Positions 14,017 through 14,311 of a DNA stretch of 64,000 nucleotides are shown here, piece by piece. Positions within the stretch are counted from its first letter, which is position 1. Each line of letters starts with the position of its first letter. The notes below the pieces were generated by a model, which was not told where the DNA came from, ran no database searches, and saw only the letters and a program-made list of their open reading frames with translations. Origin of the DNA: Candidatus Kaiserbacteria bacterium (lineage in GTDB: Bacteria > Patescibacteriota > Minisyncoccia > Phycocordibacterales > UBA918); assembly GCA_016699245.1 (NCBI GenBank), contig CP064968.1:835042-899041 (forward strand), read 5' to 3'. The translations under genes were made by a program, and so were the position numbers.

Positions 14017-14050
14017 TATAGAAATGAAAAAGGACGGAAACCACGAGTGA
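14017..14050 (-). terminator. Rho-independent terminator for the minus-strand small ORF
   Basis: Minus strand reads ggacggaaatcactcgtggtttccgtcc followed by ttttt, immediately 3' of the ORF ending at 14081. Confidence 0.65.
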
Positions 14051-14080
14051 TTTCCGTCCCTGACCGTAGGCGGCGGCTTG

Positions 14081-14311
14081 TTAGGCGCGCGGCCGGCGCA
14101 GTCCCCGCATGTAGACATCGTTGTGGCGACGCTTAAGCGGAGTGATGCTCACCTTCCGCAGATCGATGGCAGCCGATTCGGGGGGCTTCTGGGGTGTCGA
14201 CGCAGTCGACGGGACAGTCTGTTGCATAAGAACCTCCATTGAGTTGCTAGACAAAGCAGACCATCTGCTCTCTAGTTTTTGTAGGATAGACTTATTTTCT
14301 CGCTCTGTCAA
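14081..14311 (-). CDS. Small Arg/Pro-rich protein; candidate RiPP precursor peptide (alternative 48-aa form from an internal ATG preceded by GGAGG)
   Basis: ORF ends ...PLKRRHNDVYMRGLRRPRA. Locally GC-rich compared with the surrounding low-GC DNA. Own downstream terminator. Divergent from the E1-like gene. Annotated start is TTG; an in-frame ATG (MQQTVPS...) carries an SD-like GGAGG. Confidence 0.4.
   Translation of the reverse strand: MTERENKSILQKLESRWSALSSNSMEVLMQQTVPSTASTPQKPPESAAIDLRKVSITPLKRRHNDVYMRGLRRPRA

Follow-up and report, generated by a model that had tools for sequence, protein, structure and literature searches.

A conserved arginine-rich peptide gene linked to ThiF-like, arginase-family and C39 peptidase genes in Patescibacteria, a likely RiPP-type precursor

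Results

Organization of the locus

The window, by which we mean the whole 64-kb stretch of DNA analyzed, carries a block of five genes in the order peptide, ThiF, arginase, C39 and GNAT that spans about 4.1-4.3 kb and is bracketed by att-like direct repeats (Table 1); no integrase was found within the repeat-bracketed block. The peptide gene and the ThiF gene are divergent and have a 170-nt intergenic region in common, and the start of the gene for the arginase-family enzyme, a ureohydrolase, overlaps the ThiF stop by one base.

Table 1. Positions of the cassette genes and neighboring features in the window
Feature	Position	Strand	Detail
Perfect 23-nt copy of the tRNA-Arg 3' end (17937-17959)	13612..13634	-	followed by a terminator-like hairpin
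Second perfect 23-nt copy of the tRNA-Arg 3' end	13791..13813	-	
Intrinsic terminator of the peptide gene	14020..14061	-	14-bp stem 14061-14030, 4-nt loop, T-tract to ~14020
Precursor-like peptide gene	14081..14227	-	48 codons plus TAA, ATG at 14227
Shine-Dalgarno GGAGG	14237-14233	-	5-nt spacer before ATG 14227
5'-UTR hairpin/inverted repeat CTAGAGAGCAGATGGTCTGCTTTGTCTAG	14247..14275	-	
Candidate sigma-70-like promoter TTGACA-17-TATCCT	14283..14311	-	10/12 consensus matches
ThiF/MccB-like adenylyltransferase with N-terminal winged-helix domain, 360 aa	14398..15480	+	PF00899, 9.9e-42
PF00491 ureohydrolase, 409 aa	15480..16709	+	PF00491, 6.6e-61
Stand-alone C39-type cysteine peptidase, 163 aa	16763..17254	-	PF03412, 4e-12
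GNAT (Acetyltransf_3) acetyltransferase, 175 aa, accessory	17266..17793	-	
tRNA-Arg(GCG)	17938..18010	-	ARAGORN

A preliminary description of this DNA, made from the letters alone, had pointed to a minus-strand, Arg-rich ORF of 76 aa, or of 48 aa from an internal ATG behind a GGAGG motif. Both versions are present: the ORF at 14081-14311 (-) encodes 76 aa when counted from a TTG start, and the in-frame ATG at 14227 opens a 48-aa product, MQQTVPSTASTPQKPPESAAIDLRKVSITPLKRRHNDVYMRGLRRPRA, of which the final 17 residues hold 6 Arg, as had been claimed. The likely start is ATG 14227. The combined position of Shine-Dalgarno motif and start codon is kept among homologues with products of 45-56 aa, and an SD-like motif precedes the chosen start at 13 of the 14 loci analyzed, the exception being L020. 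The longer starts, TTG 14311 and ATG 14239, were rejected because they have neither a Shine-Dalgarno motif nor conservation, and the homologues begin at the SD-linked codon.

The gene appears to be a transcription unit with its own signals. The TTGACA of the candidate promoter is invariant in a three-way alignment, and the 5'-UTR hairpin is near-identical in L003 and diverged in L002. The rho-independent terminator that had been proposed exists, beginning about 20 nt past the peptide stop codon, though not at 14017-14050, where it had been placed. Most homologues likewise have a GC-rich hairpin and a T-run after the stop, even where the ThiF gene follows co-directionally; in L013 and L017 the 60 nt read past the stop do not reach as far as the T-run, and in L004 the contig breaks off inside the stem. 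Neither the 48-aa nor a 52-aa version of the peptide is present in a collection of 15 billion proteins that does hold the neighboring arginase (QQR64751.1), so the gene was apparently missed in the source genome.

Base composition of the peptide gene

The 48 codons of the peptide gene have 65% GC in a window of 43.6% GC, and the highest value for any 150 nt of the window (65.3%, at 14071) is at the ORF. It is not, as had been written, the only stretch near 60%, since 63.3% is reached at 37941 and 39091, and the window lies above the roughly 40% given for it. The peak at 39091 corresponds to the long Ala/Glu/Lys-rich C-terminal tail of a ribosomal protein L19-like gene (38685-39314).

Arg codons had been proposed to account for the spike, and they do so only partly. 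By codon position the GC content of the peptide gene is 0.65/0.54/0.75, and the third-position value of 0.75 compares with 0.41 +/- 0.06 (maximum 0.54) in the 46 long ORFs of the window. Nearly all lineages have a high GC3 (0.65-0.96) in the peptide gene between flanks of 40-54% GC, reaching 0.96 inside a 41% GC locus in L019; lower values were found in L015 (0.46) and L020 (0.56). Compared with L002 and L003, conservation at four-fold sites is 0.71-0.85 in the peptide gene and 0.50-0.57 in the ThiF and arginase genes, an excess that disappears in the comparison with L015 and L016. The high GC3 and the four-fold-site conservation hint at an additional constraint at the codon, RNA or mRNA level, one that lies outside the substrate model developed below.

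The peptide belongs to a conserved protein-coding family

A word-indexed search returned four homologues of 45-48 aa with 77-85% identity, separated by an in-frame indel of 3 codons. Together with an exhaustive profile search, covering 1.8 billion representatives, and a subsequent one of a 5.8-billion-cluster set, this yielded a family of about 51 clusters, 43-80 aa in length, all of whose full-length members found are from Patescibacteria (CPR). The N-termini vary in sequence and length, and nearly all members terminate in ...PLPRRxDx[IV]YMRG[LV]RR[RP]R[AS]-stop; the C-terminal residue is Ala or Ser in every one of about 65 family members. No model in Pfam or NCBIfam matches the peptide.

The substitution pattern is that of a protein. 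In 14 diverged loci, the variable columns among the final 28 codons are distributed 19/10/25 over the three codon positions, and in the peptide frame 751 of 1527 pairwise codon differences are synonymous and 776 nonsynonymous (49% synonymous), against 6-35% synonymous in the other five frames, four of which contain stops. The invariant arginines are encoded variously by CGT, CGC, CGG, CGA and AGA. Two ORFs on the plus strand (14078-14242 and 14121-14315) were considered and rejected, as the opposite frames show only the 6-35% level and homologues carry stops in two of the three.

These data bear directly on whether the ORF might be spurious, that is, a GC-rich structured non-coding RNA or a compositional accident. 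A few features lean that way: the peptide is missing from the protein collection and so was probably uncalled in the source genome, its GC3 is odd, its synonymous sites are somewhat over-conserved relative to L002 and L003, and the single-sequence fold has a z-score of -1.98 against shuffles. The coding signature across the 14 diverged loci already contradicts this explanation, as do the in-frame indels and the conserved positions of Shine-Dalgarno motif, start codon and stop. The folding energy comes mainly from the terminator and the 5' hairpin, an Rfam scan at gathering scores gave no match at the peptide locus, and a permissive scan gave sub-threshold chance matches alone. We therefore rejected the structured-RNA reading, and with third positions variable in 25 of 28 columns the outcome on this point, which the preliminary description had singled out as decisive, is coding. 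That the ORF is spurious is extremely improbable. Homologues with a coding substitution pattern and conserved synteny place it beyond chance, and 14081-14227 (-) is almost certainly a real, conserved protein-coding gene.

The peptide is co-inherited with three enzymes

A conserved small ORF in homologous islands had been named as a check, and one is found at the cassette wherever the cassette is intact. The peptide gene, ThiF, the PF00491 enzyme and C39 occur together at about 25 distinct loci (the window, L002, L003, L006, L007-L013, L015-L017, L019 and L020, and further L088, L089, L092, L093, L096, L098 and L099) in four gene orders. The peptide gene is divergent in the window and its Saccharibacteria-like relatives; elsewhere it lies directly upstream of the enzyme genes and co-directional with them; in L020 the C39 gene sits between the peptide and ThiF genes; and in L095 the peptide-C39 pair is convergent with the arginase gene. 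Sequence identity of the enzymes is 50-60% across the Saccharibacteria, Paceibacterota/Parcubacteria and Peribacteria MAGs.

The linkage holds from either direction. When look-ups started from the peptide, each distant peptide was found to adjoin ThiF, the PF00491 enzyme and C39, and a metagenome scan with the peptide profile added 13 loci, with the enzymes in every one that has enough flank; C39 is found in every complete cassette. Starting from the enzyme, the ureohydrolase alignment picked out 72 loci in 185,579 species genomes, and seven of these align with practically the full length of the query (37-81% identity). All seven are from Patescibacteria, labeled as Saccharibacteria, Peribacteria, Paceibacterota or Parcubacteria MAGs, apart from L019, which bears the label 'uncultured bacterium', and all intact loci among them have the peptide, ThiF and C39. 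The remaining 65 loci match in the catalytic domain alone in 64 cases (generic agmatinases) and, in L022, also in part of the N-terminal domain; a ThiF or peptide gene lies beside none of the 65.

Two loci without the peptide, L018 and L021, are decayed. In L018 the 5' half of ThiF has been lost at a tRNA junction, and in L021 (30-1022, 1860-2941) an IS30-like transposase replaces ThiF and the peptide, with the arginase gene split by a frameshift or deletion. On L090, a 1.3-kb metagenome contig with the peptide gene at 189-335, there is no ThiF within 960 nt downstream, and this copy represents either another gene order or an orphan. No other small ORF that co-varies with the enzymes was found, a further outcome on which the preliminary description had made its proposal depend.

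The partial match in L022 (3965-7152), from Pseudarcicella hirudinis, has a neighborhood of its own. Two tandem precursor-like ORFs of 49 aa (...LSVVELEERFEMTAAA..SERCT...) are followed by genes for an M50-like peptidase, for an arginase-family (PF00491) protein with an extended N-terminus and for a TonB-dependent receptor. The neighborhood may represent another RiPP-like setting for an arginase, separate from that of the CPR, and it supports the general idea that N-extended PF00491 enzymes act on peptides.

The cassette lies among repeats of RNA-gene 3' ends

The tRNA-Arg(GCG) gene, in which CCA is not encoded, lies on the far side of the cassette from two perfect copies of its 3'-terminal 23 nt, and terminator-like hairpins follow these distal copies. 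For this tRNA-Arg, bacteria usually carry an ACG anticodon. The two copies form part of an array at 13540-14010 (-) of three tandem units that resemble tRNA 3' ends and that each precede a long terminator-like hairpin; the 3' end that the third (13962-13984) resembles belongs to another tRNA, one absent from the window. Direct 23-nt repeats of a tRNA 3' end are the hallmark of island integration at a tRNA gene. Among relatives, the cassette lies beside the tmRNA gene, with 19-22-nt repeats of the tmRNA 3' end nearby, or beside tRNA genes (L015 8400-9181; L016 8438-9233; L017 789-964; L018 ~5000-5100), which suggests repeated insertion at RNA-gene hot spots. We also considered whether the tRNA-Arg might serve specifically to supply the Arg-rich peptide and rejected this, because the tRNA is not adjacent in other loci; its presence is a coincidence or reflects the integration site.

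Beyond the tRNA gene, at 18654-19862 (-), the window encodes a 402-aa protein that weakly matches models of the carboxysome shell carbonic anhydrase catalytic domain (PF20686, 1.5e-5; TIGR02701, 3.6e-10), which is unexpected for a CPR genome.

The enzymes of the cassette

Among solved structures, the ThiF enzyme is closest to MccB (3h5a, 3.2e-27, query residues 98-357). The GxGGxG loop, R163, K176, D221 and four zinc Cys of the ThiF enzyme are invariant across lineages, and R163, K176 and D221 are spaced exactly as are R167, K180 and D225, the ATP/Mg residues of EnfB (PMC12250964). The N-terminal domain gives weak winged helix-turn-helix and PqqD matches, by which a RiPP recognition element (RRE) is only suggested; a comparison of this domain with that of the ureohydrolase, using six-sequence profiles, was not significant.

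An RRE is fused to the ureohydrolase, an enzyme nearest to agmatinases that carries an N-terminal extension of 125 aa. Its metal ligands (H230, D253, H255, D257, D334 and D336) and E379 are invariant in 58 sequences, and the binuclear-metal ligand motifs GGDH, DAHxD and DxDxxDP are all present. In the C39 peptidase the catalytic Q11, C17 and H99 are invariant. The GNAT is restricted to a Saccharibacteria-like subclade comprising the window, L001-L003, L015 and L016. On inspection of the cassette no exporter was found.

The similarity to MccB raises the possibility of a microcin C-type precursor, from which the MccB-like enzyme would make a peptidyl-nucleotide Trojan-horse antibiotic, with the GNAT conferring self-immunity as MccE. 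A terminator that separates the precursor gene from the enzyme genes, as at mccA, and the nearby Acetyltransf_3 GNAT and C39 protease would suit such a system. It is nevertheless unlikely: the defining C-terminal Asn is missing, about 65 members all ending in Ala or Ser, microcin C chemistry gives no role to the ureohydrolase, which is strictly linked here, the GNAT is limited to one subclade, and there is no MccC-type exporter in the cassette.

Strict linkage of an E1-type domain and a Cys/His peptidase with a small peptide of invariant C-terminus would also be compatible with a CPR-specific peptide conjugation system. The peptide would then be a ubiquitin-like or Pup-like tag whose ...RRxRA C-terminus is adenylated by the E1-like enzyme; C39 would act as a thioester carrier or transferase to a protein or cell-envelope amine, or as a deconjugase, and the RRE-bearing ureohydrolase would edit the Arg tract and so switch the tag on or off. 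The lack of an exporter and the position of the cassette among housekeeping genes of tiny CPR genomes accord with this. We give it little credence, given that neither an E2 or JAB partner nor a C-terminal GG is present, that the ThiF is nearest to the peptide-clamp enzyme MccB and not to Cap2- or Bil-type E1s (PADLOC returned generic E1 matches only), and that fusion to an RRE, as in the ureohydrolase, typifies RiPP maturases.

Finally, the peptide could be a real small protein that is no substrate at all, acting as a regulator, immunity factor or RNA-binding partner while the enzymes use a small molecule such as agmatine. The ureohydrolase stands at the agmatinase threshold (it scores 174.0 against TIGR01230, with a cutoff of 174.3), Arg-rich tails can bind nucleic acids, and in the window genome the peptide gene is divergent and forms a transcription unit of its own. 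Against this, the RRE of the ureohydrolase and the MccB-like peptide-clamp architecture point to peptide substrates, the peptide gene of most lineages lies directly upstream of the enzymes and is followed by an attenuating terminator, the classic position of a precursor, and the invariant residues cluster at the extreme C-terminus, which is where an E1-type enzyme acts. A non-substrate role is accordingly improbable.

Discussion

A proposed pathway

We consider it very likely that the peptide is a substrate of the adjacent ThiF, ureohydrolase and C39 enzymes. The overall explanation that best accommodates the locus, and a likely one, is that the gene encodes the precursor peptide of a RiPP-type cassette and that the neighboring enzymes modify it. 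The substrate reading is well supported because a conserved coding family is combined with linkage, and because the three observations that could have spoken against it (homologous loci without the ORF, a conserved structured RNA in its place, or a different small ORF co-varying with the enzymes) all came out in its favor.

The peptide can be divided into a variable N-terminus, a beta-prone stretch, (I/L)DLxKVxIxPL, that would serve for recognition, and a putative cationic core, (Y)MRG(L/V)RR(P/R)R(A/S)-COOH. In the pathway that we propose, the recognition elements of the enzymes would dock the conserved (I/L)DLxKVxIxPL stretch as a recognition strand, after which the Mn-ureohydrolase would deguanidinate at least one core Arg to ornithine. 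There is a pfam00491 peptide arginase precedent in the enteropeptins (PMC10028609), ornithine is made in RiPPs by other arginases (PMC12703449; PMC12257519), and we judge this Arg-to-Orn step rather more probable than its absence. The MccB-like ThiF would then adenylate a carboxylate, either that of the C-terminal Ala/Ser or that of a conserved Asp/Glu, as ThiF-like enzymes do in forming C-terminal macrocycles (thiolactone, imide and indolylamide) via adenylation (PMC12250964; PMC12150305). A nucleophile would capture the activated carboxylate; the most economical choice would be the new Orn amine, giving a lactam, though this closure is a tentative and rather doubtful part of the scheme. Removal of the leader by the C39 protease would follow, and in the Saccharibacteria-like subclade the GNAT might acetylate the product or detoxify it.

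The terminator between precursor and enzyme genes at co-directional loci fits a high precursor-to-enzyme ratio; at mccA a terminator likewise follows the precursor gene and the precursor-to-enzyme ratio is high. The near-invariance of the cationic core suggests one conserved product, not a hypervariable bacteriocin, and MccA, PqqA and MftA also combine a near-invariant core with one product. A point against the substrate model is that the peptide is conserved at the C-terminus and variable at the N-terminus. Most RiPPs differ from this layout, whereas precursors of the MccA, PqqA and MftA type resemble it. The lack of a conserved GG site for the C39 protease and of an exporter in the cassette also counts against the model, as does the L090 contig.

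Patescibacteria have tiny genomes with very few recognized biosynthetic clusters, and this four-gene cassette is nonetheless conserved in them. Recovery of the missed precursor gene turns annotations that read 'arginase family', 'ThiF' and 'peptidase' into a defined, testable pathway, in which two chemistries would be newly joined: arginine deguanidination by an RRE-bearing PF00491 enzyme and E1-type carboxylate activation. A single conserved product could be important to CPR bacteria in their episymbiotic life, and an RRE-fused PF00491 arginase would be a new tool with which to install ornithine in peptides.

Comparison with known systems

The closest parallels are microcin C and the ThiF-like RiPPs (pantocin A, the GRC thiolactone, enterofaecin and the Ind indolylamide), which employ the same kind of MccB-near ThiF/E1-type enzyme with an N-terminal winged helix and the same ATP/Mg and Zn-Cys residues (PMC12250964). 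In both, an MccB-type adenylyltransferase lies beside a short precursor that has conserved C-terminal residues and its own terminator, and in some relatives a GNAT and a C39-type protease are nearby. The peptide described here differs in ending with Ala or Ser and not with the Asn of the microcin C type, and in lacking a Cys, Trp or WIVI motif; the ThiF is obligatorily paired with a PF00491 ureohydrolase, and the cassette is confined to Patescibacteria. Two 2025 reviews of ThiF-like RiPPs and enzymes mention neither arginase nor ornithine, and the literature searched for RiPPs that combine ThiF with an arginase or ornithine yielded no account of the cassette; there is no curated family for it either.

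With the peptide arginases (OspR, FlmR and OhkR, and the enteropeptin type) the ureohydrolase has in common intact binuclear-metal ligands, a RiPP-like cluster and an Arg-bearing precursor as neighbor. The preliminary description had taken an Arg-rich core as the expected substrate of a peptide arginase. Synteny and the RRE favor the substrate part of that idea; assignment to the OspR type does not stand, since OspR-type arginases belong to pfam12640 (PMC12703449, PMC10028609) and a Pfam scan of the ureohydrolase gave PF00491 only. The enzyme here further differs in having its own fused RRE and a ThiF partner in place of a radical SAM or MNIO enzyme, and its activity on peptidyl-Arg is a prediction.

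The C39 peptidase has the fold and the Gln/Cys/His catalytic residues of ComA- and LahT-type peptidases and, unlike them, is a stand-alone domain of about 160 aa without an ABC transporter. The peptide was already thought to lack a canonical GG leader motif, and this proved true of the family: no conserved GG, GA or GS site was found in alignment A5 and 41 further members, and the sole semi-conserved Gly (in MRG) is replaced by Thr or Asn in some of them.

Ubiquitin-like, ThiS and MoaD carriers have a C-terminal Gly-Gly and a beta-grasp fold. The peptide ends in R-A or R-S and, judging by its 45-56 aa and variable N-terminus, is too short for a beta-grasp fold. Membership in a defense system was also considered and rejected, as PADLOC shows generic E1 similarity only. 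The features generally expected of a RiPP precursor, namely co-inheritance with adjacent modifying enzymes and an RRE on at least one maturase, are present, and the sequences of the cassette predict a RiPP-type pathway in which both the pairing of enzymes and the family of precursors are new, known to date only from the CPR.
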